DNA from: Spizellomyces punctatus DAOM BR117
Taxonomy: Eukaryota
Length of the DNA: 64,000 nt
Reading direction: 5' to 3' (one strand)
Assembly (NCBI GenBank): GCA_000182565.2
Contig: KQ257452.1
Shown: positions 12,466 through 39,994 of the stretch, in pieces
Layout of the letters: every line of letters starts with the position of its first letter
How positions within the stretch are numbered: the stretch's first letter is position 1
The notes under the pieces: model-generated
Seen by the model: only the letters and a program-made list of their open reading frames with translations
What the model was told of the DNA's origin: nothing
Databases searched by the model: none
Program-made: the position numbers and the translations under genes

Positions 12466-13448
12466 TAATCTAACTAAACTACGCTACGCTACCGCTGGAA
12501 CACCCCTGCTGAACACCTCTGGTCTACCGTGCCCATCCAACATTGATTGCACGATCGTTAGCATATTACAGGTTGCCAGCGTATCTCGGTTCCAGTAGCG
12601 CATTCTCGACGTCCAGTCTTGCTGCAAACAGTTAGGGTTGGTACAACCCAGCAATCCATGGACTTTTTCAATCTTGCCTTCGCGTCACCGCCAAGGTCTT
12701 GAATGAGGTCATTCTTTGAAGCCTTTCTCGACAAACTCAGATGAGGAACAGCGAGGGCAAACAGATGAGGTCTTGTATTCGTCGAGAAGAAAGCAGTTGA
12801 TCCTGTTCCACTTAAAGAGGGTGCGCCAACCTTTCATCTTTGATGAGGTCTGAAATCTCGCAGTTCGACCGGCATCACTCCAATCACCCATCACAATGGT
12901 AAAGTTCCCAAACTTGTTGCGCATGTTGCTTATGAGGTCTGATTCACTCTTCTGACGGTTTATAAATGCATGCCACTTCCACCGCATGTGGGCAGGATGC
13001 AAATAGAAGTCCTTGCGGCAGTTCCAGTCGGCACGGCGAACGAGGAGATAGCGAGTAAAGTCCATGAGGTTCATCGTCTTGTGAGATGGTATTCGTGATT
13101 CTATGAGGTCAATACCGCCGGCTTTCATCTGCTGCCGTTCTTTTGCAAATCGACGGCTTCCGGTCTCCATGGCTCGCTGGTTGGCAGTGTAGCGAAACGT
13201 ACCATTGCCGTCTTGGCAGTAGAGAATGTCATGCTTGTTTGGGTCGATAACAATGACATTCTCTGCTGCTCGACAAGCAGGTAAGTTTTTCTCCACATAA
13301 AGTGCTGTCACCTCAGCTGTAAGAGTTGTTGCTGACTTTTTCCCACCACTGCGCTTCCCATACTTGTCTGCTTCTGGGTGCTTTAGGTATACAGACACCG
13401 AGGTTCCATCCATGGTGATCGAGCCTTCAAACTGCATACCGCGGCGAG
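12391..13448 (-). mobile_element. Fanzor1 element (Spu-1-like), 5'-truncated, right end intact
   Basis: RuvC-type ORF remnant plus conserved end ...GTGCTAGTGCCAATACCCATCGGCTCCGCAC-TA, shared with the copy ending at 38328. Confidence 0.9.
12484..13448 (-). pseudogene. Fanzor1 nuclease C-terminal half (RuvC I/II/III + zinc finger), two in-frame TGA stops
   Basis: IVIDPNK (RuvC-I), VMGDWS, LDEYKTSSVCPRC (RuvC-II/ZnF), GLLGCTNPNC, WNRD (RuvC-III); TGA at 12709-12711 and 12685-12687; natural stop at 12484-12486. Confidence 0.9.
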
Positions 13449-22700: not shown

Positions 22701-23049
22701 GGATATCATGACCCTCTTTTGAGTAGACAAGAGGTTGATGCGCAGATATGTCGATTGTGGTCAACTGACTCTCCTCATCAATTTCAAGCCTCTTGTTATC
22801 AACATTTAATCCAATGGATATGACGCCATGTTCATTCATACAAGGTAAGCATTCAGAGGTGGTTTCAACCTCGTTGACTTTAAGTTCACCATTTTCATTA
22901 GATAAATGCTTAAATTCTCCAACATCGAACCCCTTTATCTTGGCTCCAGCATCGAAGCCAACCATTTCGCCTGTCACATATGGAGATAAGAGATTTGTGT
23001 TATCTACGGTATGTAACCCCGTAGAAGTTCTACTATTAATTCCAGACAT
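16747..23049 (-). pseudogene. Viral fibre/spike protein, ~2100 aa, split by a single in-frame TGA (19705-19707)
   Basis: ORFs 19705..23049 and 16747..19686 are in the same frame (GYVF*IDPSGNMVVSGG); beta-spiral-like N-terminal repeats; repeated TSxTTGALxVxGGxGIAKxLYVGG units. Confidence 0.8.
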
Positions 23050-23106
23050 GTTATATTGTAGCTAGGAAGTAAAATTTGAGGAGCTTGGCAAAAGTGCTCG
23101 AGGGTG

Positions 23107-23128
23107 CCCATCTTATCGATAAGATGGG
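23107..23128. promoter_or_regulatory. Perfect 22-bp palindrome CCCATCTTATCGATAAGATGGG
   Basis: Self-reverse-complementary and intergenic; near-copy at 14381-14401; function inferred. Confidence 0.6.
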
Positions 23129-23139
23129 ATGATAAAACC

Positions 23140-24572
23140 TTACGATATCTTCTGTTTCTTCCTCGGTGGAAGTGTGACATCCTCTGCTCCTTTTCTCCTT
23201 CTACTTCGAACTGTAGGTTCCACACGCAGTGTCGATTGTGTTTGTGCAGGAGGGACAACATATTCCGCTTCACGTTGTCCTCGCAATCTTGTGAGTGGAC
23301 GTACTTCACTTCCCAAGTCCGCGGTTAGCGGTACTAACGTTGGAGGATTGACAGCAACATTCGGAGGTGCTGGTGCAAAATTGACTTTTCTCCTATTTTT
23401 GGCTCATATATGTTTTTCAACTTCTTCAGGGGATGTTAATCTAATTTCCTCTACTTCCTCTCGTTCGGGTATAGAAGAATCTATTCTTTGTCTTTTTACC
23501 GTGGTCTGCTTATCATCTGGTTGTTTGTACTGTCTTCTTTTGGTTCCATGAGGAGCAACTCCAGCAAAAATCACATCCGGTGGTGGAGTTACTGGCTCTG
23601 TTTTTTGCTTCTTTTTGTTTAATCGAGGAATCGGCGGGGGTGCATTTGCTTTCCTTTTGGAACCTGCTAATATGGTTGCTTCCTTACCTTTGAAGTGAAA
23701 TGGAGTTCTAGCAGGAACCAGGATAAATTTTTCATTGACGGAGTTCTCTCTAAAACATCCGCTACACCAGACGGATCATGGCGGTCATTCAGGAGTACTG
23801 TATCATGCGGAATTGGTGCGGCACTACGAGGCATTGTTTCCATGGAGGCATCGATTTGAGGAGATTCCACATGAACCTCTGGAGTCAAGCCAGGGAAACT
23901 GCCTGGAATCGGTGGAATATAAGCATCGGCCATTGTCATCGCATCCAATGGAACAGCAGCGCCAGTCCCATGATTGACATGGTCATTTCCAACTGCATCT
24001 CGTCTAATTTCTGTCTCCCTTGTTAGAATTACAGGTTCTAGGGGAGTAGAATTTACATTACGTGGCTGTGCTGGAATCTCATTTCCATTAGGTGGTGCTT
24101 CAAACATTAAGCCCGTTTGGGAAGTCACTGATGCGGGATAGGAAAACACATGCCCCGATTCATCAGGAATCGGTAATCCTGAAAGGGAATTTTGCGTTCC
24201 AACAGTTAGAGCGTTCCCTCGACGACTTGGTGTAATAGAATCAAGATACTTCTGTTTCTTCCTGTAATCTTCCTCTGCTTTAACATATTCAAGACCGTCC
24301 CTGTAAGCCTTGGTAGTTCGTTGGGCAGCCGATAATTTCAGAACATCAGAAGATGAGAGCCTCGGTTCATATTTCGGTGCTGCATAGTTCGTCTTTGTTG
24401 CTAGGTCTTTCTCATGGACATTGCGGTTCCACGAATAGACAACTTGTGGTCGTCCGAGGATATCAATCTTTGAATAGTCTAGTGCGACACCCACTTGACG
24501 TTTTTGCAGATTTGGAATCGGTGGCGAAATAGCATATGTATCACTCAAGTAATTGGCTCGGTAATATGCCAT
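23140..24572 (-). pseudogene. Viral Pro-rich/basic protein (~475 aa), frameshift near 23745 and TGA at 23404-23406
   Basis: The 301-aa ORF continues in another frame as NEKFILVPARTPF..AGSKRKAN..KHI*AKNRRK..PPRKKQKIS*. Confidence 0.6.
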
Positions 24573-24637
24573 ACTAGGTTTTTTCCTTTGCTATGTAGAG
24601 CTGAAAAAATAATATCTCTTCTGTTCTATAAATCAAG

Positions 24638-24934
24638 ATGCCTAATTGGTTTTCTAAAGCGAAAGCAAAGGCAAATGTTCTGTGGAATAACGCACCGTCA
24701 TATGTTGCCAAAGCAAGGAACTTTGCTAATCAAGCAGTCCGGCACGCCACCACATTGAATAAACACGTGCAGCACGTAAATCGCCAAGTACAAGAGTCAC
24801 CACTTTTCTCAGCAGGAGTCCGAGAGAAAAGTCAAAAGATTTCTAGTCATGGAGACACTGGGCTGAGGAAACTTACAGAACTTCACAAGAACGCTGACGA
24901 CTTTGTTGAAAGAGTGACTGGGAAAATTGAATGA
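24638..24934 (+). CDS. Small basic viral protein with N-terminal amphipathic helix, 98 aa
   Basis: MPNWFSKAKAKANVLWNNAPSYVAKARNFANQA; ATG preceded by TCTATAAATCAAG. Confidence 0.7.
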   Translation: MPNWFSKAKAKANVLWNNAPSYVAKARNFANQAVRHATTLNKHVQHVNRQVQESPLFSAGVREKSQKISSHGDTGLRKLTELHKNADDFVERVTGKIE

Positions 24935-25048
24935 ACATATTTGTTTAGGCTGGTTGTTCAAGAAGCAGTAAGAAGCTAGAGCTTTATGTAGACGACAAGC
25001 TGGGAATTAAAACATCTCAAAAAGATGGGAAAAAATGCCAAGGCAGCC

Positions 25049-26302
25049 TTAGACCACAGTCACGACCACACCAATGCTTAAAGTGACATTTTCGTGGTAG
25101 CACGTTACCATACGCACCTTTTGCGTAGGTGCAACAGCATGTTGCATATGTACTCTTAATAAACCGTCTGTCCCTGTAAAACTCAATGCCGCCTGACTGC
25201 CTTCATCCTTGCTGGCAAAACTCCATCCAAATGAAAAGGCTTTTGAATCATAGTCGGCGAACGACATATCCATCTCCCCGAGTTGGTCAAAGTTGTTATT
25301 TGATAACTGTGTGACCAGTAACGTTTGATTATCAGATGGGCTATGGCTGAACCCTTGCGTTCCACTTGGAATGGTAAGATTTGCCCCCAATTGAATTCGC
25401 CACTCGCGAAGCCCTTGTGAAGAATACATTAGCGCCTTATCTTTCGTCTGGTCATTGAGAACATCATCGTCCACAAACGACATTTCGATCCCTTGAAGTG
25501 ACCTTACACCACTCATATGAAGCAAAAATGTATTCCGGTTTCCGCCACTACATGCGTTTTCCGTTTGGGTTGAGCGCACATAGTCATAGAATATTGGCTT
25601 TCCATCACTTATAGCGCGTGTTGAATTGATGACACTGCTTGGTGGTGGTGTCACATACGAAATCAAAGTCCTGATATTTGATACTCTAATCTCTCCAACT
25701 CCAGCCGATGTAAAGACGGTTGAAGGATCCGCAAGCGTGATTATGATTTCGAGTGCTTGATTTGGAAGTGCCCAAACAGGGAAGAACTGGTCATTTGTCA
25801 GATGAAAGAAACCCACAAAAGGGTGATGGTTGATGGAGATGGTACTCGATGTTGCAAAGATATTGGTGTTTCCATATCCGGAAAGTTGGCTCAACAATTT
25901 CTTACTACCAGCAGATAGATTGCGGTACGTTTGTACTAGATAAAGAGGATAGTTTGGTATATTGACAACTGTTTCTCCTCCTGCTTTGATGGTCAATGAT
26001 TGAATAATGGATTCCAAGCCAAGATACGTGTTTTTAACACCTGTACCAGGAGTTATCAGGTTCCCTGCATTATCATATGCAGAAACATCCATTGACAGAA
26101 TTAGTTTCTGCAAAATGAAAGAGACCGAATTCGAGTTGCAAGTGATCTTAATCGGAGTCAGGTTTCTTGACTTTGTCGTATATGTACTTTGACCTATCGG
26201 AGAATAGATTGACACCCCCTCACCGCGAGGATCGGAGTAACTTTTGGCGAAGGAATTTGTTGAGAAGATCCAGTTACGTGGTACAGCAACTTCTTCTGAC
26301 AT
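25049..26302 (-). CDS. Double-jelly-roll major capsid protein (Polinton-like virus type), 417 aa
   Basis: GLESIIQSLTIKAGGETVVNIPNY, FFPVWALPNQALEIIITLADP and IRVSNIRTLISYV match remembered PLV MCP patterns; size; adjacent to minor capsid and ATPase. Confidence 0.85.
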   Translation of the reverse strand: MSEEVAVPRNWIFSTNSFAKSYSDPRGEGVSIYSPIGQSTYTTKSRNLTPIKITCNSNSVSFILQKLILSMDVSAYDNAGNLITPGTGVKNTYLGLESIIQSLTIKAGGETVVNIPNYPLYLVQTYRNLSAGSKKLLSQLSGYGNTNIFATSSTISINHHPFVGFFHLTNDQFFPVWALPNQALEIIITLADPSTVFTSAGVGEIRVSNIRTLISYVTPPPSSVINSTRAISDGKPIFYDYVRSTQTENACSGGNRNTFLLHMSGVRSLQGIEMSFVDDDVLNDQTKDKALMYSSQGLREWRIQLGANLTIPSGTQGFSHSPSDNQTLLVTQLSNNNFDQLGEMDMSFADYDSKAFSFGWSFASKDEGSQAALSFTGTDGLLRVHMQHAVAPTQKVRMVTCYHENVTLSIGVVVTVV

Positions 26303-26344
26303 CTTTGTTTACTGATTGCAGGAAAAAAAAAAATGGAAGATTTT

Positions 26345-26885
26345 TCAGCCAAAAATACCACCATAGTTGTCCTCCTCAACATTGTCCTCCTCAAAGAATG
26401 GTGATCTAGAGTCAAAGAATGGTTCATCATCACCGAATTTCAAAATTACGCTCTTTTTTTTAGATGGACGTATTGCTGCTGGCTGCGCCTTTGCTGCTGG
26501 TTTGGATCTCTTGCTCCTAGTTGGTGTTGGTGTTGGTGTTGGTGTTGCCTTCTTTCCTCGCTTCGTGTTTTGTCGTTCTTCCCTCGCCAACCGCTTCTGT
26601 TCCTTCTCCTCTTCAAGGATGCGTTTGGCCTCATCGATCCTCCTTTGTTTATCCTGCTCCTTCCGTTCCTTCTCGCGTTTTGCTTGCATTAGGCGCAATT
26701 GTTCAGCCCTCGCTTTCTGCGCCTTCTCCAATGCAGCCCGTTGCTTGTCCGTCATCGGGCGTTTCACCTTTTGCTTTGGAGGCTGTTCTGGTATAATTTC
26801 TGCTTTTTGAACAGGTGCTTGTTCAGCGGGTGGTTCTACATTATCTTGTGGAACGGCACTCGATTCTTGATGATTTTGATTTTAC
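26345..26885 (-). CDS. Basic coiled-coil viral protein (start probably within the N gap)
   Basis: KRPMTDKQRAALEKAQKARAE.., PTPTPT repeat, acidic tail; frame stays open upstream of 26767 to the gap. Confidence 0.7.
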
Positions 26886-27054
26886 NNNNNNNNNNNNNNN
26901 NNNNNNNNNNNNNNNNNNNNNNNNNNNNNNNNNNNNNNNNNNNNNNNNNNNNNNNNNNNNNNNNNNNNNNNNNNNNNNNNNNNNNNNNNNNNNNNNNNNN
27001 NNNNNNNNNNNNNNNNNNNNNNNNNNNNNNNNNNNNNNNNNNNNNNNNNNNNNN

Positions 27055-27681
27055 GAATTCGATTTTGGAGATAGTGTCATCAACAGGGAGCCATTCACCT
27101 CTGTCGTTAGTCCACGTGACTACATCGCCGAAACTATCAGGGACAACCGCAGCAATTACGGATTGGGCGGAATCATTGAAGTCACTGAGGAAACGGCTTC
27201 CTTGGACTTGGATGTTGCTTGTGACAAGCATTGGATACGAACCGGACAAATTGACAGCATTCTTCAGTGTGATAGTCTTGTAATATCCCGTTTCACTCCA
27301 TCTTGACATTCCTGTTAGAAGATAAGAGGATGTTCCTCTCGAAGCGGCAAGAACCTTGAAGTTCTTGCTACCAGATGTGGAAAGTGTCAATCTCCTCATA
27401 ACAGAGTTGTATGTGGCATTGTAGGCTTGTGTCCCGGCTGAACTCAACGCTTGAGCAATGGCATTTGGAAAATTTGCTATGCTGTAGTTACCATTAGGTA
27501 TTTTCGCAGATAAGATGGTTGGATCGCCTTCTTCAACAAAATTAATCGTGTTATTAGAATCGTTGACCAGATCCCAATCTTGAAGGAAAGAAACCGAGAG
27601 AACCTTCATCATTTCCATCCTCCGAGGAGGTATTGAGAATGATCGAGACTTTAAGGAGCAGTATGTCACTTCGTTAATCAT
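27055..27681 (-). CDS. Minor capsid (penton-like single jelly roll) protein; 3' end in N gap
   Basis: SNNTINFVEE..AKIPNGNYSIANFPNAIAQAL motif typical of PLV/virophage minor capsids; beta-rich; ends ISKIEF at the gap. Confidence 0.75.
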
Positions 27682-27722
27682 GATATTTCCTTACCTTTAT
27701 GTAAAGACAAAGGAAAATTTAA

Positions 27723-28323
27723 ATGTCCTATAAACCACGCCCAATCTTTCCCGTAGGGAAAAAGAAGAGAGATCCTCGTGTTCCACGTGACCTGGCATCA
27801 CTGCCTCTATGTACAACTCTTGTCGCTCCGAGGAAAAGTGGTAAAAGTGCATTAGTCTGCGGTCTGATTGAGGATGTCTATGCTAAATTACACGATCGAG
27901 TCATTATCATGTCCGACACAGTTGAATATGATGCTTCTGTGAAGGTACTGGCCGAAACCACAAAACATAAAAATATCTACTTTACAGACGAGGTTTCCAA
28001 TGCATCCATCGCTAAAATAGTAGAAGAACAGAAGAAAACGCCTGAGAAGTCACTTCTATTATTCATTGACGACGCTGGTGATTCTGCGCAAAGTAAAGAA
28101 CTCAACAAGGAGTTATCGAAACTCTATACAAAAGGGAGGCATTTCAATATAGGAAATATTGTAGCCATCCAGAGTGTAACCGGACAACTTTCATGTAAAA
28201 TGAAGAACTGCACCACTGAGTGGGTGGTGTTTAAAAACAATGCAGAGGACATGAAACTTTCAGCAAAGTTACTTGCTTCCGCCTACAAAGATGATAAAGA
28301 AGTTCTAACATTTCTCACCGAGT
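27723..28323 (+). pseudogene. A32-like (FtsK-HerA) genome packaging ATPase, C-terminally truncated by an LTR
   Basis: Walker A APRKSGKS, Walker B LLLFIDD, KGRHFNIGNIVAIQ motif; the stop codon is supplied by the LTR start. Confidence 0.9.
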
Positions 28324-28923
28324 TGTAGCGGATTTTTTGTTGGTAGACTACGGTAAAGACAACTTGGGTCTCCTAGCAGGTTGTGTGGGTGTCCGTACTA
28401 GGAATCGTAGTCTCCAAATCCTTTCTTTGGGCGTCGGTAGCGACTTGGGGGCGAGAGGCAAGGAGAGTCGGTTAGTTGTGAACCGAGCAGGATTTAGAGG
28501 CTTCGGTACGGGTGATCAGGCCGTTGAAGCGCTCTGTTAGGTTCCTGTTAACCTAAGATTGGAGTTGAGAAGCGAGTTATGGGGATTTTGTGTCGCTACG
28601 GCTTCTGCCCCCGACTTATTTTATTGAATACCTCCTTTTTATACAAGATTCTTGGATAAACTGTTAAACTAAACTAAACTAATGGGTGTCGCTGCACCGC
28701 AACTGATTTATTGGTGGCGGTACCGATCTCTTCCTTTTCCGCACTGGCTCGGGCCTCCACAGGTTGTACGAGGCACGCTGAAATCTAATGCGCCAATTGC
28801 CATTCTCCGAACCGGTTTTTTCGGTCGCGGTAACCCAATCGGTGGAGTTGGTCACGCGATTCGTGCTTCCCGCGTCCGATTTGGGCTTACTCGCGATCTC
28901 TCGAAGACGTCCTCGTCGTTACA
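28324..28923 (-). repeat. 3' LTR (600 bp)
   Basis: TGTAGCG...CGTTACA; 7 mismatches to the other LTR by eye. Confidence 0.95.
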
Positions 28924-28934
28924 TCCCCCCTTTG
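28924..28934 (-). other. Polypurine tract
   Basis: Minus strand CAAAGGGGGGA abutting the 3' LTR. Confidence 0.85.
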
Positions 28935-28980
28935 AAGAGCCAACACACCGGCGCTCCGAGCGGGGGTGTTGGGACGTCAA

Positions 28981-31900
28981 TTACCAGGTCGGTACCGGAT
29001 CTGTGGGGTCCGCTTCATCTGCATCTTGGTTCACGACCCAGATGATACTGGCACGGCCACCGACGTTGCAACAAAACCAGATTTGATCTGTTGCGGTACG
29101 AACGATGGTACCCGGGGTCACGTCGGGGCCAGTTCTGGTTACGTAGAGGGCCGTAAAGGTCTCCGCGGCCCTTTTCAGGTTTGTCGCGCGGAAATGGTAC
29201 TCCGCGTGCTCGTGATGTCGGGGTCTGGTGAGCCTTGCAGAGGCTTCCGCTGCGTTCGCCGTCCTTAGGAGCACCGTCCTAGCTGCTTCAATGACGGCGG
29301 ACGCAAACTCGTGGGCGTCGTCGTTCGGCCAATCGGTGAACGGAGCCGTTTTTCGGCTTCCCGCCTCGTGTTGGGGAACCCCGCGGTCGAGCCAAGCGGC
29401 GCACGGAGCTGGGCGCCCTCTTTTTCCGGGTTTTTTCGCGTCGGCAACTATTCCGACCGCTGCTTCACCACCATCGGTGGCCTTGCTGTAGGGGTCCGCG
29501 ATGTGGTTTGTGAGGGGCTGGCCCACCGCGTAAGGTTTCGGAGCGTCGACTCCCAGCCAAAACTCATGCCCTGGAGTCTGCAGCGGCGCGTTGGGGTTGG
29601 TCCGAAGCTGATGAACCCAGGAGTGAACCCAGGTAGCGATCGCAACCCCAAGGCGATCCAGCATGCCCTCGGCCTCGAAGTCGCCCGAGTCTTCCTCCCA
29701 AGGGTAGCCGGACATGTACGTGGAAGGTACGCTCACTCCTGCTTGTCCTCTGAGATCGGTGTTCATTGTGTTAGAAATGGAAGTTTTAGTTTCGGTGTCG
29801 ATAGAAGGGGTTTGCGAAGCAGAGTGAGTGTGTAAGGGAAGTAGGTCGTGGGCGGTTGAAGAAGAAAAAAGAGGGGGAGCGTGCAGGGGCGTCCTTTTAA
29901 GGTCGTCGCCGGCTGATTTTGACAGCTCGGACGCGCGTAAGCGTGATCGGGAGGCTTGGTGTGGCGTTCTCGACTGGTGAGGTAAGCCACGCGAAACTGG
30001 TTTTCTTTCTGGTGAGAGGGCGTGATTATCACGTGAGCTATCGTCCGGATAAACCGCGAAGCATTGGTGGTCGGAAGCATAAGCCGTATCTTCCGGGGCG
30101 TCGCCTGCAAGGCTGACTACCAAAGAGTCCTCTACTAGCGCGCTAGTGGGAGCTCTGGATCTCCAGTACTCTTCTAAGGCTTCGGAAGCCTCTGTTAGGG
30201 CTTCCTCTGGTTCCCAGGTATCCTCATGGGGTGGGTATCCGGACCAACGTATTCGAAATTGACGTTTTCCGCGCCTGGTTCGATGGTCTACTATCGCTTC
30301 CACTTCAAACTCGCCATCTGAAGCGTCGGAATCCTCCGCTTGTGCTTCCGCGACCTTTTCCTCAGTTTCGGCGTCGACAGGCTTCTGGTACGGACGTAAT
30401 TTCGATATGTGAAACCATGGATGAAGTCGTCTCATCTTGTCTGGCAGTTTTAACTCGTAGTTGTCGCGGAGAGGGTTACAGTCGGTCACCGTGACTGGTC
30501 CCAGCCATTTCGGAGCGATCTTGGACTCATACCCTGCTAGGTTTTTCGTGCTCAGAAGCACCTTATCTCCTCTCCGGAACTCCAAATGTCGTCGCGATAA
30601 ATCGTAATATCTTTTCTGCGAATCCTGGGCTTCGATCATCAGATCTCGGATAAGGATGTTTAGGTCGCCGAGGTGTTTACAGAGCTCCTCCGCATCTGCA
30701 TTTCTGGTTTCTGACGGCCTTTCGACGATGTCCGCCAGTGGATTGTGGGGCTCATAGCCTAGGTCCATTCTGAATCGCGTCATTTTTGTCGCCTCGTGTA
30801 CCGTATCGTTGATAATGAATTCCGCAACCGGAAGAAAGGTGTCCCAGTCGTCTAATCGGGTGTTGACCATTGTGGTAAGGACCTGCAAGACCGTTGCGTT
30901 GTCTCTTTCTGATTGTCCATCACCTTGAGGGTGGTAGGCTGTGGTGAGCTCTTGATTAATCTTTAGGTTTTTGCAGACCTCCTGCCAAAATCGACTCGTA
31001 AATTTGGAGTCGCGGTCCGAGATAATGGTCTCCGGGATGCCGTGCAATGGGACGTAGCGCTCTATAAAGAGTTCCGCGACCTGAATAGCTGTCGCAGTGC
31101 TCTTGAGGGGCCATACGTGGATCCTCTTTGAGCATTTACATGCTATTAACCAAAAGGCGTCGTACCCTCTGGAAGTAAGTGGGAGCTTGGTTACGAAGTC
31201 AGTCGTGATGACTGTCCAGCGTCCCGGAGCTGGTGGTATGGGTTTCAGCAACCCCGGAATCAGTTGCGGTACCCTTTTTGAGCGTTGACAGGTTTCACAT
31301 CCTGCGCAGTGTTTTCTGAAATCTTGTGCCATTTTCGGCCACCAGACTTGCGCTGCAGCTCTAGCGTAGGTTCTTTCGAATCCGAAGTGTCCTCCCCCCT
31401 CGTGAAAAAGCTTGCGCACCTCAGGGGTGCAAGCAGGGGGCACGTAAAGGCGCCAAAGGTCTTCGGAGACTGAAAAACGGTGCCACAGCAGGTTATCTGC
31501 ACGTTGCCAGTCCTGAAGAAAGCGCGTGTCGGCGGTAGTGTACGTGTCGGGGCTGGTCTCCCATAGAAGGGTGCGGGCCTGTTGGGCGATGGGGTGGAGT
31601 GGGCCGGTGAGGCCAGCGCGGATGGCGGTGATGAGTGCGGGCTGTAACGCCAAACGAAAGATGGCATCTGCCAGTGTTGAGGAGGGTGCGGGACCGGCTG
31701 GCGGGGTGCGCGGCCGTCGTCCTTTGCGTTCCGACACCCATATTTCGGTCCCGGTAGAGCAAAGAAGAGTTTCCGCGCCAAGTAGCCGCGAAAGTGTATC
31801 AGCGACTATGTGGAAGCGTCCTGGTTTGTGTACGATTGTCATCCATTCGGACCAGTAACTAAGATTGAGGGCCCAGCGGAGGAGCTTTCGGTTCTCGCCT

Positions 31901-34900
31901 TTGTATTTGGCGAGCCACAAAAGAGCTCGGTGATCGGTAATGACCGTGAAAGGCAGGCCTTCGAGGTATGGGCGGAGTTTTCCGAGGCCCCAAATGAGGC
32001 ATCCGGCCTCGAGTTCGACAGGTGGGGCCTTCTTTTCCGAGGTGGTGGTGCCTCGGGAATGGTAGCACAGCGGGCGTTTAGAAGCATCCGGCTGTAACTG
32101 TTCGAGCGTGACATTAAACGCTGTGTAGGAAGCGTCACTGTGAAGGGTGTAGGGGAACCCTTTTCTGGGTGCCGCAAGCACTGGAGCTGTTGTCAGAGCC
32201 TGCTTGGCGGCTGCGAAGGCAGAGTTTCGGGAGTCGGTCCATGAAACTTCACGCTTCGCGACGAATCTGCGCAGACCTTGGTCGGGGCGCTTGCGAGCAA
32301 GGCGTCCGACACAAAAGGGGTCAATGGGCAAGTCGGCCAGCGATGATTGGCGTAGATTGACCGCCGGTAGGTCTGAGGAGCTAGATTTAAGATGTTGCGA
32401 AACCTCAAATCGGGCTCCGGTTGCTGTGATTGTTGGGGCCACTGCCGTGTCAAGCATGGACGGTGAATTGAGCTTTTCAGCTCCTTTCCTTGGGTCAGCG
32501 CGACCCTTTTTAAGGTCTCGATATTCACGAACGCCCTCTTGGATAGCGTCTTGCAGGGGTCGGACGAGTTCCGCGTAGCGAGGGATGAATTGGGCATAGA
32601 ACCCAAGGAGACCCACGAAGGACCATAGGTCACCAATAAATTTAGGTCGTGGCCAATCGACTATGGTTGCGACCTTGTCTGGATCGGTAGCGAGGCCCTG
32701 GGAAGAGGCAACGAAACCGAGGGCCGTGAGCTGGTGAAAGAGCCATTGACACTTGTCGAGCCTTAGGGTGAGTTTGGCCCTGGAAAAGCGGTCGAGCCAG
32801 TCCGCGATGGCATCTAGGGCTTCCGCGGCTGTCTCCGCTCGTGTATGGATATCGTCGACGAAGTTGTTGATATTTCGCCATTTGGAGGGACCCAAGGTGT
32901 CGTCCATCACCCGACAGAAGTGCGAGGGGGCAGTCTTGGGTCCGAAGGGCATGAAAAGTGGTTCGTAGATGCCATCGTGGAGTCTGATCGCGAGCCATTT
33001 GCGTACCGACGTATCAGTGATGGCGATTTGGTAAAATCCTTTGTTTGCGTCACCTCCCGATATGTATCGGAATGGGACTGCAACGATCCAGTTCAGGATG
33101 TCGAGCATGATGGGAAAGGGATATGGATCCCAGGCCATGCAGTCGTTGGCTCGGCGATAGTCGAAGGCTACCCGCGGGGGTTTGTCTGCGTAGCGAATAA
33201 TAACAGGATCGCTGGCGAAGGTTACTTCGGTGGTTCGTTTCCACCTCTGAAGCCCCATCATGGTGTCTCGCTCCGTCTCGAGGGCTGTCCGCTCCAACGG
33301 AGAGTACGACCGTGGCCTCGAAAGGGGTGGCGGAGCCGAGATAAATCGAGGCGCATAAGGAATCTTGGTGTAGTTCCCTATGAGATGACCCTCATAGCTG
33401 AAGGCTTGATGGAAGTGTCGTAGAATGTTGATTAGGGCCCAGACCACGGGTTTGGGTCGTTTGAGATCGACGTGGAAACGTTCCGCGTCTTTTAATTGGG
33501 CTTCGAAGGCCCCTGGAGCCTTCTCTGTAGAGTTGAGGTTCCATTTGTTCCGAAGTGTCTGCCATTCTTCTTCGGAAATGTTCTCTTCGGGGTCCGCGAC
33601 CGAATTATGGGTCGCGGTGGACAGTTTGAGGCCTAACGGGGCCGTTGTGCTAGCTGCGGTGGCATCAAGAGGGTTTTCGATGAGGAAAGTTTGGGCTGCC
33701 ACGCGCGTCTGTCCCGTGATTAACATGGTTAATCTAGACTTCTGAGCTTTGGCTTTGGTCAGCCGTGGCATTGACACATCCTTCATGAATTCACCCTGCT
33801 TGGTTTTGTATGGCGTGCCGCGCATGTGATCGGTATCCAGCTCATCCGTTATGGAGCAGGGGATAAGGATGTCTGGATTCTTGAGCGTCACCGCGAAACT
33901 GGGTAACGGGGGTTCCTGAACCAAGGTTTGGAGTTTCAAATGTCCCAAAACGTCGTTGGCTAGGATGATGAGAGGTTTCCCGTACGCGATGACCCGAAAG
34001 TAGGCGCGGAAAGTCAGGTATTCTCCGCCGCGGCCTCTGAGGGAAGTTTCGAGGCATACTGTCTTGGTAGATGAGATACGTCCACCAATGCCGTTGAAAG
34101 CCATCGTTTCCGCATCCTGCAAATCGGTTTCGGAGAACAGAAGGCCTTGGTACGTGTCGGAAATCAGAGACTCGCAGGCCCCTGTGTCTAGTACCACAGG
34201 TGCCCAGAGCTGCGCGATGACGGCTAGCGTCCAGCAAGGCTGCGTTTGGGTCTTAGTCTGGCTTTTGAGTACATCGCCTAAATCTACTGAGTAGAAGGCG
34301 TTGATAGAAGGCACCGCGATCTCGAAATGGGGCGCGATGTCGTTAATTGTTGCTTCCGTAGCCTTGATCACACTCTCAAAGTGTTCTCTAGTTTTGTCGT
34401 TTTGTGGTTTTGTTGTTTTATTCTGGCGAGCAACTTGTTCGATAGCCAGCATGACTATACGCGTCCGTTCGCTCTCTTCGTGTCTTTGGAGACGTGGATG
34501 GTCTTTAACGTGCCGAAATTTGGGGTTTCCGCGACGATAATAATAGTCTGAGCGAACGATATTGCCTGTCAGGAGAAATGCCACCAGTTGCAGGTTGGCG
34601 TACGCATCAAAGATAACAGGATCTTCAGAGCTCCACATCAAGAATTTCTCGCGCTCGTCGAGCTTTATCCAGGCAAGGAGAATCAAACGAGGGGTACCGT
34701 CTTCTCGGACCTTTCGCAGGATTCGATCCTTGTCAGCTTCGGCTGCGGCAGCGATGTAGAGGTGGTGGGAACTCCACGCGACTGCGTAGGGGTCGTTCCC
34801 GAGGTGCCCGGCGCCTCGCTTCGGTTCTTTGGCGAAGAAGCTGAGCGCGCGGGGGTTGTTGCCCATCATCAGAGCCACTTGCGGGGTGCCCCAGATGATG

Positions 34901-36540
34901 GCTATGTTGTCCCAGACTCGGTCCCAGCCCTGCGTGGGCGTGCGGGGGTCCTCTTCCTTGGTCACCGTGACCTTGGAAAGAGGTGCGGTCATCAAAATTG
35001 TTGATTCCGAGTGCTTGGGTGAATGAAAGAACCCGATGGTGTGGAATCCTTGATTAGCGGCTTCCGTTCTTTCCAGTTCCGAAGCCGAAAAAAGAGTTTC
35101 GGTGGTAGCGGACGTCGAGTCCAGCTCCACTATGTACGCCTTCTTCGATTCCTGTTTGGGTTTCCAACCTGAGGGCATGGGTGCTCCATATGGTCCTTTC
35201 TTTCCATCTTCAGGATCTTTTCGGTTCGGGTTCTGCCAGCAGAAAACATTCCAATGCTTTTTCTGACAGAATTTGCAGGGTGCCGGTGGTTCCTTGTTGG
35301 GGTCCGGAACCATCTTCTGAGGACCATCGCGACCCTTTTCGGGGTTTCCGGTTTTATGCGGAGCCGTCTGCTTAGGGCCTTTGTCGGTTCCGGTCTTTTG
35401 TGACTTCTTCTGAGCTTCTGCAGCACCGCTGTAGCAAGGGTCTCGTTTTCTGGTGTCATCAGAGCCGAAATAAAGGCGCAGGAAGTCTTTTAATTTGGTC
35501 AGGTTCGTGACGTTACAGGATTTGACCATGATTTGGATGTCGCTGGGCAATTGTTCGACTATTAGGTCGAAATGCTGGTCAGCGGGACATTCTATGTTTG
35601 CCCGGTCGCCATAAGCGAGGCGCCGGAGATGAGTTTTGTGGTCGATGAACGCGAGAAAGCTGCGAAATTCTTTGGGGTTCGCATGGCAGCGCACATATTC
35701 GGTTTTGCGCTTGGACTCGGTTAGGGGATCTCGGAACTCTCGAAGCAGTTCCTCTTTCCACCTTTTCCAGGTCCATGAGCGAGTTTCCTGGGCTTCCAGA
35801 GTGTAAAACCAAGCGTCAGCAGGGGTTTTCTCGGCTATCATGGCTGGTAGGAGCTGTACCATCCTGGCATCCGACGTTGCGCTAACGTTTTGAAGAAGTT
35901 GGACTTTGTTAAGCCATTCTTCAACGTCTTGGTTTCTTCTGCCCGTAAACTCGGGTACGTCCTTTGCTTTCAAGGAATCGACCTTGGTGTCGCTGGCCCA
36001 CGGGGCCGCTGGCACTTGGATTGGAGGCACCGCACCTGAAAAACTTGGTTCGGTACGCTCCCTTGGTGTGTCCGCCGTTTCCCACGGGGTTGCGGACCGT
36101 TCTCTTGTAGCTCGTGCTATGGGAGGTTGTTCAGGCAGCGGGCGATGCGCTAGGGCTTCTAAGGCTCGTGCGAGGCGCTCATCCGCCGCTGTCTGACGTT
36201 CGGAAAGCCTATGAAGCTGTTCCGTAAGGTTTTGAGTTGCCAACTGCGTTGCAGCAGTCGAGCGGGCAATGTCTTCTTTTAACGCTGCCACTTCAGAGGC
36301 CATCGTGGCCAAGTTAGGGGCTTCCGGTTCGACGGAAGTGGTCCCTGAACGCCTTGGGCGTGTTGCGGGAGGGACTTCGACGTCCTCCGCAGGACCCTGA
36401 CTACGAGTCTGGATCACAGGTGAGCGGCCTCGCGTTGGTGAGCGTTCGACCGGCATCATTCTCGGTTTCGTGAAGTTCTGTCTCCGAAACGAGAGAAAAG
36501 GTTTCCGAGTAGCTACCTGAGCGGATCTCGGTTTGCGCAA
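28981..36540 (-). CDS. Gag-Pol polyprotein, ~2500 aa, uninterrupted (first ATG ~36459)
   Basis: Gag knuckle CKFCQKKHWNVFC; protease LDTGA; RT PFGPKTAP/FVDD; RNase H LHSDAS; integrase H..H..CETC and DRDSKF; chromodomain FEVEAIVDHR..IRWSGY..DTWEP. Confidence 0.96.
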   Translation of the reverse strand: MRKPRSAQVATRKPFLSFRRQNFTKPRMMPVERSPTRGRSPVIQTRSQGPAEDVEVPPATRPRRSGTTSVEPEAPNLATMASEVAALKEDIARSTAATQLATQNLTEQLHRLSERQTAADERLARALEALAHRPLPEQPPIARATRERSATPWETADTPRERTEPSFSGAVPPIQVPAAPWASDTKVDSLKAKDVPEFTGRRNQDVEEWLNKVQLLQNVSATSDARMVQLLPAMIAEKTPADAWFYTLEAQETRSWTWKRWKEELLREFRDPLTESKRKTEYVRCHANPKEFRSFLAFIDHKTHLRRLAYGDRANIECPADQHFDLIVEQLPSDIQIMVKSCNVTNLTKLKDFLRLYFGSDDTRKRDPCYSGAAEAQKKSQKTGTDKGPKQTAPHKTGNPEKGRDGPQKMVPDPNKEPPAPCKFCQKKHWNVFCWQNPNRKDPEDGKKGPYGAPMPSGWKPKQESKKAYIVELDSTSATTETLFSASELERTEAANQGFHTIGFFHSPKHSESTILMTAPLSKVTVTKEEDPRTPTQGWDRVWDNIAIIWGTPQVALMMGNNPRALSFFAKEPKRGAGHLGNDPYAVAWSSHHLYIAAAAEADKDRILRKVREDGTPRLILLAWIKLDEREKFLMWSSEDPVIFDAYANLQLVAFLLTGNIVRSDYYYRRGNPKFRHVKDHPRLQRHEESERTRIVMLAIEQVARQNKTTKPQNDKTREHFESVIKATEATINDIAPHFEIAVPSINAFYSVDLGDVLKSQTKTQTQPCWTLAVIAQLWAPVVLDTGACESLISDTYQGLLFSETDLQDAETMAFNGIGGRISSTKTVCLETSLRGRGGEYLTFRAYFRVIAYGKPLIILANDVLGHLKLQTLVQEPPLPSFAVTLKNPDILIPCSITDELDTDHMRGTPYKTKQGEFMKDVSMPRLTKAKAQKSRLTMLITGQTRVAAQTFLIENPLDATAASTTAPLGLKLSTATHNSVADPEENISEEEWQTLRNKWNLNSTEKAPGAFEAQLKDAERFHVDLKRPKPVVWALINILRHFHQAFSYEGHLIGNYTKIPYAPRFISAPPPLSRPRSYSPLERTALETERDTMMGLQRWKRTTEVTFASDPVIIRYADKPPRVAFDYRRANDCMAWDPYPFPIMLDILNWIVAVPFRYISGGDANKGFYQIAITDTSVRKWLAIRLHDGIYEPLFMPFGPKTAPSHFCRVMDDTLGPSKWRNINNFVDDIHTRAETAAEALDAIADWLDRFSRAKLTLRLDKCQWLFHQLTALGFVASSQGLATDPDKVATIVDWPRPKFIGDLWSFVGLLGFYAQFIPRYAELVRPLQDAIQEGVREYRDLKKGRADPRKGAEKLNSPSMLDTAVAPTITATGARFEVSQHLKSSSSDLPAVNLRQSSLADLPIDPFCVGRLARKRPDQGLRRFVAKREVSWTDSRNSAFAAAKQALTTAPVLAAPRKGFPYTLHSDASYTAFNVTLEQLQPDASKRPLCYHSRGTTTSEKKAPPVELEAGCLIWGLGKLRPYLEGLPFTVITDHRALLWLAKYKGENRKLLRWALNLSYWSEWMTIVHKPGRFHIVADTLSRLLGAETLLCSTGTEIWVSERKGRRPRTPPAGPAPSSTLADAIFRLALQPALITAIRAGLTGPLHPIAQQARTLLWETSPDTYTTADTRFLQDWQRADNLLWHRFSVSEDLWRLYVPPACTPEVRKLFHEGGGHFGFERTYARAAAQVWWPKMAQDFRKHCAGCETCQRSKRVPQLIPGLLKPIPPAPGRWTVITTDFVTKLPLTSRGYDAFWLIACKCSKRIHVWPLKSTATAIQVAELFIERYVPLHGIPETIISDRDSKFTSRFWQEVCKNLKINQELTTAYHPQGDGQSERDNATVLQVLTTMVNTRLDDWDTFLPVAEFIINDTVHEATKMTRFRMDLGYEPHNPLADIVERPSETRNADAEELCKHLGDLNILIRDLMIEAQDSQKRYYDLSRRHLEFRRGDKVLLSTKNLAGYESKIAPKWLGPVTVTDCNPLRDNYELKLPDKMRRLHPWFHISKLRPYQKPVDAETEEKVAEAQAEDSDASDGEFEVEAIVDHRTRRGKRQFRIRWSGYPPHEDTWEPEEALTEASEALEEYWRSRAPTSALVEDSLVVSLAGDAPEDTAYASDHQCFAVYPDDSSRDNHALSPERKPVSRGLPHQSRTPHQASRSRLRASELSKSAGDDLKRTPLHAPPLFSSSTAHDLLPLHTHSASQTPSIDTETKTSISNTMNTDLRGQAGVSVPSTYMSGYPWEEDSGDFEAEGMLDRLGVAIATWVHSWVHQLRTNPNAPLQTPGHEFWLGVDAPKPYAVGQPLTNHIADPYSKATDGGEAAVGIVADAKKPGKRGRPAPCAAWLDRGVPQHEAGSRKTAPFTDWPNDDAHEFASAVIEAARTVLLRTANAAEASARLTRPRHHEHAEYHFRATNLKRAAETFTALYVTRTGPDVTPGTIVRTATDQIWFCCNVGGRASIIWVVNQDADEADPTDPVPTW

Positions 36541-36596
36541 GAGTTTCGGTACGACCGAATAAGGTTTTCAGCTGAATTTGAGAGGGGAAGGCGGTT

Positions 36597-36614
36597 CGTC
36601 GCGCTTCTCCACCA
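36597..36614 (-). other. Primer-binding site, probably tRNA-Ala
   Basis: Minus strand TGGTGGAGAAGCGCG directly after the 5' LTR, complementary to a ...UCUCCACCA tRNA end. Confidence 0.75.
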
Positions 36615-37214
36615 TGTAACGGATTTTTTGTTGGTAGACTACGGTAAAGACGACTTGGGTCTCCTAGCAGGTTATGTGGGTGGCCGTACTAGGAATCATA
36701 GTCTCCGAATCCTTTCTTTGGGCGTCGGTAGCGACTTGGGGGCGAGAGGCAAGGAGAGTCGGTTAGTTGTGAACCGAGCAGGATTTAGAGGCTTCGGTAC
36801 GGGTGATCAGGCCGTTGAAGCGCTCTGTTAGGTTCCTGTTAACCTAAGATTGGAGTTGAGAAGCGAGTTATGGGGATTTTGTGTCGCTACGGCTTCTGCC
36901 CCCGACTTATTTTATTGAATACATCCTTTTTATACAAGATTCTTGGATAAACTGTTAAACTAAACTAAACTAATGGGTGTCGCTGCACCGCAACTGATTT
37001 ATTGGTGGCGGTACCGATCTCTTCCTTTTCCGCACTGGCTCGGGCCTCCACAGGTTGTACGAGGCACGCTGAAATCTAATGCGCCAATTGCCATTCTCCG
37101 AACCGGTTTTTTCGGTCGCGGTAACCCAATCGGTGGAGTTGGTCACGCGATTCGTGCTTCCCGCGTCCGATTTGGGCTTACTCGCGATCTCTCGAAGACG
37201 TCCTCGTCGTTACA
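36615..37214 (-). repeat. 5' LTR (600 bp)
   Basis: TGTAACG...CGTTACA with perfect 7-bp terminal inverted repeats. Confidence 0.95.
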
Positions 37215-37440
37215 TTAGGATGACATGTATGAGTTCTGATTGGTTGCAAATGGTGCAATAGGCTGACAAATAGTTTAGGATGATGTGGGTGAGATCTGAT
37301 TGGGTAGTTAGGATATAGCATTTGTCAGCCCCTTTGTCTATAAAAAGAGGACCTCTCTGAGGCCGCTCAAAGGGAGAACAAGTAGTAACCAAGTCTTCCC
37401 TAGTTTTCTGTTGTCTTCTTGTCCCTGCTAGCCTGTTACA
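37215..37440 (+). mobile_element. Truncated LTR of a second, unrelated retroelement family
   Basis: Two CTGATTGG boxes, 11-bp inverted repeat GGCTGACAAAT/ATTTGTCAGCC, TATAAAAAG, and an end ...TGTTACA exactly where Fanzor homology begins. Confidence 0.6.
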
Positions 37441-38328
37441 TACCTGCTTGTCAAGCAGAGAATGTTGTCGTTATCAACCCAAACAAGTGCAACATTCTCT
37501 ACTGCCAGGACAGCAATGGTACAACATTTTGCTACACCACAAACCAGCAAGCCATGGAGACAGGCAGCTGTCGGCAGCAAAAGGAACGACAGCAGATGAA
37601 GAAGGAAGCGGGAATGGACATCATAGAATCATGAATACCATCTCACAAGACAATGAACCTCAGGGACTTCACTCACTACCTTCTCATTCACTGCGCAGAT
37701 TCAGATCATCACAAGGAATTCTACTCCCATCCCGCCCACACATGGTGGAAGTGGCATTCCTTCATCAGTCAGCAGCGAAGCGAATCAGACCTCATAAGTG
37801 CCATGCACAACAAATACAGTGAAAACTTTACCATTGTGATGGGTGATTGGAGCAATGCCGGTTGAACTGCGAGATTTCAGACCTCATCAAAGATGAAAGG
37901 TTGGCACACCCTGTTCAAGCGCAACCACATTGATTGTTTTCTTCTTGATGAACACAAGACCTCATCTGTTTGCCCTCACTGTTCATCCTCTGAGTTTGTC
38001 GAGAAAGAATTCAAAGAACAACCTCATTCAAGACCTTGGCACCATCACGAAGGCAAGATGGAAAAAGTCCACGGATTGCTGGGTTGTACCAACCCTAACT
38101 GTTTGCAGCAAGCCTGGACGATGCGCTACTGGAACCGAGATATGCTGGCAACCTTTAATATGCTGACAATCGTGCAATCAATGTTGGATGGGCACGGTAG
38201 ACCAGAGGTGTTCAGCAGGGGTGTTCCAGCCGTAGCGTAGATTGGTTAGATTAGCTTATCCGAACTGGTTGTCGCCGGTTCAATTCCTGGTGCGGGTGCT
38301 AGTGCCAATACCCATCGGCTCCGCACTA
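37441..38328 (+). mobile_element. Fanzor1 element (Spu-1-like), 5'-truncated and heavily mutated, right end intact
   Basis: PACQAENVVVINPNK..VMGDWS..LDEHKTSSVCPHC..GLLGCTNPNC..WNRD..PAVA* (stop at 38240); TGA at 37632 and 37863; end ...GGCTCCGCAC-TA. Confidence 0.9.
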
Positions 38329-38343
38329 TGAGCAGCATACACA
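38254..38343 (+). ncRNA. Fanzor omegaRNA (scaffold to 38328 plus guide TGAGCAGCATACACA...)
   Basis: Near-identical to the reverse complement of 12391-12465; RNA ends inferred. Confidence 0.72.
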
Positions 38344-38419
38344 GATTGCCTTGTTCAACAACAGGTGGAATACCAAAATCAAAAGCACAATTTTCCTGCT
38401 GCAGTGGCATTAACAATTG

Positions 38420-39994
38420 CTATACAATCTCAAACGCCAGCTGGATGGGACTCTTCAAACCAAACAAGCCCTCTGAATAATACATCAAATCCGCAATGTG
38501 GAGAGCATTCATCAGTTCCTTTCCTGCGTAGAAATCCTTGCATCGCTTCCACAGAGCCCTAATTTCGGGGGTAGCTTCATGAATTCGACAATGCTCGATG
38601 TTGAGGTAATCAAGACGATCCAGACATAAGTGCACCGGTACCAGGGCTTCAGCAGTTAGACCTTGGCAATCGTAAAGGCACAAGCGCTCTAGACGCCGAC
38701 AGCTGGTTGCAATGCGTGAAACTCCCGTATTTGTGACATTAGGAGATGAGAATATTCCTAGCTCCACAAGGTTGGGAAGGTATTTAGAGATGGATATGAG
38801 TGAAGCGTCGGTTATGTGGCGAAGAAGAGCCAGGGTGAGACCCGTAAGGTTACGACAGTGGGTAGCGAGGGTATAAATGGAAGGGTCACGAATATGCTCG
38901 CTGAGCCCGATGGTAAGCTGTGTGAGTCGAGTGCCGATATTGTGTGCAATATACTCGATCGTCGCATTCGTACACTAGAGATATTGCCATATGTCAGGGA
39001 GAGTCATACGAGTGAAGATTGGACGTGGGGCTTACCTGTCTACAATCAAGTAACGACAAGTCCGTTAATTGGGGACAGGATTTTAGCAGTCCAGCTATTG
39101 TATCGTCGCGGAGCATGTCACAGTGCTGAATCCATATTCGTTCCACGTTTGGAAGAGCAGACAAGGCCCGCACTAATCCAGGCCCCGTCACCTCAGGAGA
39201 AAGTGTTAAGGATATGTTCTTCACATTCGGTCGGAGCTCAGGAAACATCTCTCGGAGAGCTTCATCATTCAGAGTCCGAATTCCCGTCAAGTCCATTTGT
39301 TCCAATGATAAACATCGCACAACGATCCTCCCTATTCCATGGGCAGTGGCCCTCTGACATCGTTCGACATTGAGAACCCGCAGGCTGGGACAAGCCTCAG
39401 CAATGCTTATCAACATCCGATCTGTGACGTTATCGGCAATGTCCGACAGATGCAATGTCCTGACAAAACTTCCATACACTATCGGACATGGAACGCTCCG
39501 AAGAACACGCCGTCGAATGGGTGACACTGCAGTATCCGAGACGTTTCCGCCACGCCGTAAGACGTACAGGAAGTCTTGCCAAGTGTCTGGTCGCAGCGGA
39601 GGTTTGCGCTATACAGATAACAAATGGGTTGGTCTTAAACTCTGGCTTTAGGCCCTGTCATTCCCATACCACCTACCCAAAGCAGTCGGACTGCAGCATG
39701 GAACCATGCCCGGTTGACTCTCGCTGGACTAAGAAGGTCACGCTCTGACCCTACTCGGACAAGAAAGTTAAGGATATGATTCAAAAGCTCTGGTGCCAAC
39801 GTCGCAGCCAGTGCGGGGAATGTCCCAGTTGTATGCGGCTGGCACGGCTCCCGCATTTTCGCTTTTGAGCGCCGTTTGTTGTGCTTGTGCGTTGGGCTTT
39901 CTGGACGGCTTGAAGCAGATAGCGGTGACTGTATGAGTTCCGGTGCAGCAGCAAGAAGGCGCTCTCGCCTGCGCAGACCAGCCGACGACGACAT
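38420..39994 (-). CDS. F-box/LRR-repeat protein (multi-exon)
   Basis: F-box LAPELLNHILNFL..ARVNRAW; cysteine-containing LRRs (IAEACPSLRVLNVERC, SCRRLERLCLYDC). Confidence 0.85.

Follow-up and report, generated by a model that had tools for sequence, protein, structure and literature searches.

Promoter-like A and B boxes at the guide RNA end of SPu-1 Fanzor elements in Spizellomyces punctatus are probably a by-product of parts with other jobs

How the guide RNA (omegaRNA) of a Fanzor nuclease is transcribed and matured in the eukaryotic nucleus is not settled in the literature cited here. The question is raised by a 64,000-nt stretch of Spizellomyces punctatus DNA (here denoted the window), in which two Fanzor right ends carry motifs resembling the A and B boxes of tRNA genes. 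An initial annotation, made from the letters alone, proposed that the omegaRNA may be derived from a tRNA or a SINE and transcribed autonomously by Pol III, so that dead or truncated copies could still supply guides. Our computational analysis supports this interpretation in part. We give a probability of about 60% to the reading that the boxes are an incidental by-product of parts with other jobs. The A-like box would be the final Val-Ala-stop followed by a TAG-rich repeat, and the B-like box would consist of the stem-loop 1 3' strand and the linker after it, which contacts the protein.

The two right ends belong to two 5'-truncated, broken SPu-1 Fanzor1 elements; the left Fanzor fragment matches SpuFz1 (PDB 8GKH) with an E value of 8.6e-138 in phmmer. 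Fanzor1 coding sequence lies directly 5' of a 75-nt, two-stem omegaRNA scaffold, which ends in the inverted repeat and is followed by variable flank. The features are as follows.

37215..37441, + strand: 3' part of the LTR of another retrotransposon, in sense orientation, directly upstream of the truncated Fanzor
37339-37346, + strand: TATA-like box within the LTR fragment
37442..38240, + strand: SPu-1 Fanzor1 coding fragment, 5'-truncated and broken (RuvC/zinc-finger end)
38233-38245, + strand: A-box-like motif TAGCGTAGATTGG, right copy
38238-38240, + strand: TAG stop codon of the right Fanzor fragment
38254..38328, + strand: omegaRNA scaffold of the right copy, 75 nt, 5' end at 38254/5
38262-38281, + strand: stem-loop 1 of the right scaffold
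38277-38287, + strand: B-box-like motif GGTTCAATTCC, spanning the stem-loop 1 3' strand and the 6-nt linker
38282-38287, + strand: linker of the right scaffold, 6 nt
38288-38328, + strand: stem-loop 2 of the right scaffold
38299..38328, + strand: right terminal inverted repeat of SPu-1
38329..38343, + strand: flank-derived guide, 14-15 nt by the published rule
12484..13445, - strand: second SPu-1 Fanzor1 fragment, 5'-truncated and broken, 5' limit approximate
12486-12484, - strand: stop codon of the left Fanzor fragment
12486-12474, - strand: weaker A-box-like motif TAGCGTAGTTTAG, left copy, without GG
12465-12391, - strand: omegaRNA scaffold and right inverted repeat, left copy
12442-12432, - strand: B-box-like motif GGTTCAATCCC, left copy

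The element itself is already known: the window copies belong to the same family as SPu-1/SpuFz1 (Bao and Jurka 2013, PMC3627910; Saito et al. 2023, PMC10432273; PDB 8GKH) and share its 75-nt scaffold, inverted repeat and flank-derived guide, differing in being 5'-truncated and broken. According to the available passages of PMC10432273, the mature omegaRNA consists of the 75-nt scaffold and 14-15 nt of flank, and in the cryo-EM structure stem-loop 1 and the linker contact the protein, with linker residues A29-C34 touching RuvC. Both window scaffold alleles appear in the omegaRNA table of that paper, and the right scaffold folds at -29 kcal/mol (z -2.95). The first 8 nt of the right A-like box fall in the last two codons (Val, Ala) and the stop, and the box lies outside the mature omegaRNA, 9-21 nt upstream of it. 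The LTR fragment has 40 scored copies at 92-100% identity and ends in TGTTACA, followed in locus L240 by a PBS-like TGG; with its TATA-like box it is a candidate Pol II promoter for the right Fanzor copy.

Neither window copy has a full-length ORF or a left inverted repeat with CATA, and the two right ends are the only SPu-1 ends found within the window, with assembly gaps between them. The right copy is complementary to the left at 75-96%, and across the box region the two are 91-96% identical. Being near-identical paralogues, they were rejected as independent support, and their boxes count as one observation, not two.

The right ends, at 12391-38328, point away from each other and enclose 26 kb as a pair of inverted repeats. 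Between them, at 16747-28328, lies an ORF cluster like an endogenous Polinton-like virus, with the following features.

27723-28328: A32-type packaging ATPase, PF04665
19705-23049: weak fibre hit
25049-26302: 417-aa ORF, at a guess a capsid protein

Next to it, at 28324-37213, is a Ty3/Gypsy element with a chromodomain, a 2492-aa open frame and LTRs 98% identical, which sits inside another element's LTR. Elsewhere in the genome, one locus (L015, C17:397557-397781) joins a left and a right end head to head across a short spacer, all within ~75 nt, and is a rearranged SPu-1 junction.

The motifs reported by the initial annotation were confirmed: TAGCGTAGATTGG with GGTTCAATTCC and TAGCGTAGTTTAG with GGTTCAATCCC lie at the coordinates listed above, with starts 44 nt apart in both copies. 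The spacing is tRNA-like, as had been claimed, 44 nt being the commonest value (10/29, with 43-45 nt in 23/29) among 29 distinct host tRNA genes, a subset of the full complement drawn from the best 63 Rfam hits and other loci. We scored the boxes with matrices built from 13 host tRNA genes, three tRNAs having been excluded by the B-box regular expression. The right copy scored 12.7 for A and 14.1 for B, within the host tRNA ranges of 10.5-14.5 and 12.5-16.0. For the left copy the claimed positions and spacing stood but the A box proved weaker: B scored 13.7, whereas A, which at 44-nt spacing begins at the stop codon within a 5-nt duplication and has no GG, scored 9.7, below the tRNA range. The combined best scores were 26.8 (right) and 23.7 (left), against 24.2-29.2 for host tRNAs; none of 1000 dinucleotide shuffles matched the combined score of either region, and only one other site in the window, on both strands, reached B of at least 12. 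Both copies fit GWTCRAnnC, the B-box consensus of type 2 Pol III genes (available passages of PMC2566860), whereas the A-box pattern TRGYnnAnnnG is matched by the right copy only with one extra base before GG and by the left copy without GG. The motif match is real and beyond naive chance.

That the right copy, with the commonest tRNA spacing, scores like a host tRNA gene counts against an incidental origin and favours a working type 2 Pol III promoter in the ORF-bearing SPu-1 elements, an alternative we consider unlikely. Transcription would then start ~10-20 nt upstream of the A box; removal of the leader, as happens in yeast RPR1, and trimming of the 3' end to the Fanzor footprint would follow. 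Elements without an ORF (ghosts) would have lost the boxes and would use a TATA-driven spliced cassette. Such an element would make its guide without destroying its own mRNA. Precedent exists in yeast RPR1 and snR52, type 2 Pol III genes whose boxes lie in a removed leader (available passages of PMC5095917 and PMC2566860). The Fanzor A box would likewise sit in a leader absent from the mature RNA but, unlike in these genes, it overlaps coding sequence, no terminator follows and the boxes are not conserved in relatives. Also in favour are a native 88-90-nt RNA at four Fz loci (PMC10432273, available passages) and a native 5' extension of 275 nt, within which the A box would fall and which boosts editing in human cells for a reason left unexplained in the available passages of PMC10432273 and PMC13434818.

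The proposed tRNA or SINE origin of the omegaRNA is not supported. ARAGORN found no tRNA gene in the window, and Rfam had no match with E of at most 10 at 38100-38450. The would-be tRNA gave no cloverleaf fold, only 3 of 5 T-stem pairs form, and its middle part is no closer to host tRNAs than shuffles are (63/500). A T-arm within the omegaRNA was rejected, as GGTTC pairs upstream within stem-loop 1 and no T-loop results. tRNA-derived SINEs are mobile elements with A and B boxes at tRNA spacing. Unlike them, SPu-1 ends in the inverted repeat of a DNA transposon, has no A-rich or LINE-derived tail and has no tRNA fold; its flanks diverge right after the inverted repeat, and a tRNA-derived SINE was rejected.

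A narrower likeness exists to host tRNA-Thr(TGT). Over tRNA positions 44-72, 22 of 29 nt are identical to it (the next best tRNA has 18), including all 9 nt after the B box, a match reached by 19 of 200,000 random 9-mers in a post hoc comparison. This match speaks against an incidental origin and would fit an end that is the relic of a captured tRNA-Thr(TGT) gene, with or without present use by Pol III. We think such a relic very improbable: the matching nucleotides form base pairs with the end of the inverted repeat, and in ghosts the two sides covary; a distant Fanzor locus (L210) has the same TGGTGCG/CGCACTA pairing without a B box, and the incomplete T-stem, the lack of a cloverleaf and the middle part that is not tRNA-like count against it as well.

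We next compared the box region across 47 ORF-linked and 115 ORF-less (ghost) ends retrieved from the genome. Ghost Spu-1 elements (available passages of PMC10432273 and PMC13434818) share the scaffold core and stem-loop 1 of SPu-1 but have no ORF and carry their own TATA block and an intron. A strict B box is present in 40/47 ORF-linked ends versus 0/115 ghost ends, and an A core at 41-50 nt in 40/47 versus 1/115, while a full A box with GG at that distance is found in only 23/47 ORF-linked ends, which weakens the case for a Pol III promoter. Since the initial ghost anchor included T at tRNA position 58, the box patterns were recounted across the genome (24.1 Mb, 38 contigs). The intact-box pattern occurs at 37 sites, comprising 35 Fanzor ends assigned by coordinate match, one tRNA-Thr and one unrelated site, and the T58 pattern at 119. 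Conservation of the boxes across right ends, which the initial annotation had asked about, therefore holds for most ORF-linked ends and fails in the ghosts.

Nor are the boxes conserved across homologues more widely. A58 is missing from both copies of the sister family SPu-2 (56-58% amino acid identity to SPu-1), neither of which has a strict B box, and from five SPu-1-type copies, one with an open frame. We collected 21 distant Fanzor1 loci from metagenomes and viral contigs and examined 17, leaving out four whose match falls short of the C terminus (L206, L207, L222, L223); among the distant loci, L209, L211 and L214 end within a few bases of the C terminus and L204 duplicates L203. A B core was found in 1 of the 17 (L208), at another position and without a good A box, and neither strand near the match end has one in the distant or viral loci L212-L221. 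The TCC/stem-loop 1 layout recurs in the four informative distant loci, with changed stems and no box at the homologous place; two Parasitella omegaRNAs, compared by eye in the table of PMC10432273, likewise show the same layout with other stem sequences. B-like motifs occur elsewhere in the RNA in three of the four, matched by 11, 27 and 69 of 1000 shuffles, against 280 of 1000 at the fourth; we count these motifs against an incidental origin. The B core of L208 (2840-2851) is perfect and lies in a hairpin just after stem-loop 1.

This distribution bears on the readings in different ways. The restriction of the strict B box to ORF-linked ends, and its absence at that place from SPu-2, the five SPu-1-type copies and the distant relatives, argue for boxes that are incidental and against a Pol III promoter. 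The same conclusion is favoured by ghost scaffolds, which lack the box and equal extended canonical scaffolds in editing (available passages of PMC10432273 and PMC13434818). On the other side, both boxes accompany the ORF in ~40/47 ends and both are missing from ghosts, a pattern that would suit two promoter strategies as well. Around the stop, a stretch of 12 nt is nearly the same in the two families SPu-1 and SPu-2, in contrast to the synonymous sites before it, so that the A-like 12-mer is conserved at the DNA level. Finally, stem-loop alleles are common to both classes (GCGC in 14/47 ORF-linked and 3/115 ORF-less ends), yet ghosts never have A58. As promoter evidence this last point is weak, because homology breaks off shortly downstream, after a few bases, and exchange could have run either way.

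Other stem-loop 2 types are also common to Fanzor-bearing and ghost elements (L226-L228, L264-L281), which suggests, from sequence comparison, that ends may have been exchanged; two of the shared types are abundant in RNA run X9, as loose ends of 4,328 and 4,497 reads. By eye, the published ghost scaffolds of the large second clade (among them gst3, gst7, gst73 and gst98, in the available passages of PMC13434818), compared with loci L061 and L062, read as the reverse complement of the ghost left end and not as an omegaRNA, and this may explain their low editing activity. Ghosts also lie near tRNA genes, 8/100 being no more than 2.5 kb from one of the 63 tRNA hits listed, where 1.3 are expected; none of 3000 random draws was as high, a comparison uncorrected for shared intergenic location.

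TFIIIC can bind without directing transcription, at extra-TFIIIC sites. The B box could accordingly be a putative TFIIIC site that forms a chromatin boundary at the element end; strong B boxes in ORF-bearing copies only would fit this, as would ghosts that are highly transcribed by Pol II and never carry one. As the box is lost from SPu-2 and five SPu-1-type copies, we consider such a TFIIIC site highly improbable.

By eye, none of 40 Fanzor ends has a T5 run within 30 nt, and neither has the right omegaRNA of the window, whereas 24/29 host tRNA gene copies have one within 45 nt. Most SPu-1 copies also have a T4 run between the boxes, which counts against Pol III transcription but is ambiguous as a stop: host tRNA-Lys(TTT) reads through one, and 5/29 tRNA copies end with T4 only.

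RNA from four runs was mapped on a locus made of one SPu-1 element and one ghost (L235) at 85% likeness, so that read counts are family-wide. Only X9 had raw reads (~6% read, at most 60 nt, 168,437 mapped); X1 and X2 were excluded as evidence for their small share (5 and 17 contigs). From its depth ramp X9 looks 3'-tagged, and RNA without a poly(A) tail may escape it; upstream depth can also be reduced by divergence, and precursor RNA should not be equated with mature guide. Sense coverage of ghosts is continuous upstream of the scaffold, rising from 1,247 at ~320 nt upstream to 30,688 immediately ahead of the scaffold; within the scaffold it is 27,597. A 58-nt GT-AG intron is skipped by 920 reads from 21 start places, and 81/85 complete ghosts have a TATA block at a median of 492 nt upstream. 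Ghost copies thus supply guide-containing RNA by a Pol II route, as long spliced transcripts that start below a TATA box and reach the scaffold. The prediction that dead copies supply guides is borne out in this respect, by a route other than the one proposed.

Intact-box copies contribute little of this RNA. The SPu-1 A58 position reads T in 7,863/8,418 reads, so that at most 555 of ~36,000 guide-region reads come from intact-box copies and at least 98% from copies without the B box; per copy, this is ~300 reads for T58 and at most 14 for A58. SPu-1 depth, at 13, 62 and 111 through the ORF end, does not exceed 158 immediately after the A box, and read starts do not pile up at the predicted Pol III start, in a library that looks 3'-tag-like. 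By eye, 14/22 SPu-1 left-end rows, some of them rearranged, have a TATA-like motif before the ATG. The predominance of TATA-driven spliced ghost transcripts in the guide region, the lack of an SPu-1 start pile and the lack of a T5 terminator all argue for incidental boxes, and the missing start pile stands against the Pol III promoter; that X9 may not see non-polyadenylated RNA tempers both.

If the boxes are incidental, the omegaRNA would be released by cleavage at the 3' end of a longer precursor made by Pol II, which would be the Fanzor mRNA, a spliced ghost transcript or, for the truncated right copy, possibly LTR-driven read-through. SPu-1 omegaRNA would come from the same kind of long precursor as that of ghosts, and trimming may be performed by Fanzor itself or by host nucleases halted by bound Fanzor, by analogy with TnpB. 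TnpB omegaRNA is processed from its own mRNA in 30/59 bacterial orthologues (Nety et al. 2023, PMC10278001, available passages, in which Fanzor is not mentioned); as in TnpB, the Fanzor guide scaffold lies at the 3' end of the nuclease transcript.

The box resemblance was found in no paper within the literature searched, which excludes subscription papers. Neither tRNA nor Pol III is mentioned in the available passages of PMC10432273, where the boxes are undescribed, and term checks of PMC10432273, PMC11423790, PMC13434818, PMC10530073 and PMC10711439 were negative in the portions of these texts available.

A single linker base decides whether the B box is intact, and ghosts carry a natural allele of this base with which the RNP stays active; promoter and RNA function are therefore separable by one base, and a negative test would close a tempting idea. 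It is doubtful, on our assessment, that the transposon built a tRNA-type Pol III promoter from its last codons and its scaffold while ghosts keep out the B box and rely on a cassette that is transcribed by Pol II and spliced. Were it so, one family would run two guide-biogenesis routes, and the editing gain from the 275-nt extension could partly reflect an internal promoter. A Pol III-driven guide would be the first for an OMEGA system in the literature searched, and would bear on the design of SpuFz1 guide cassettes.
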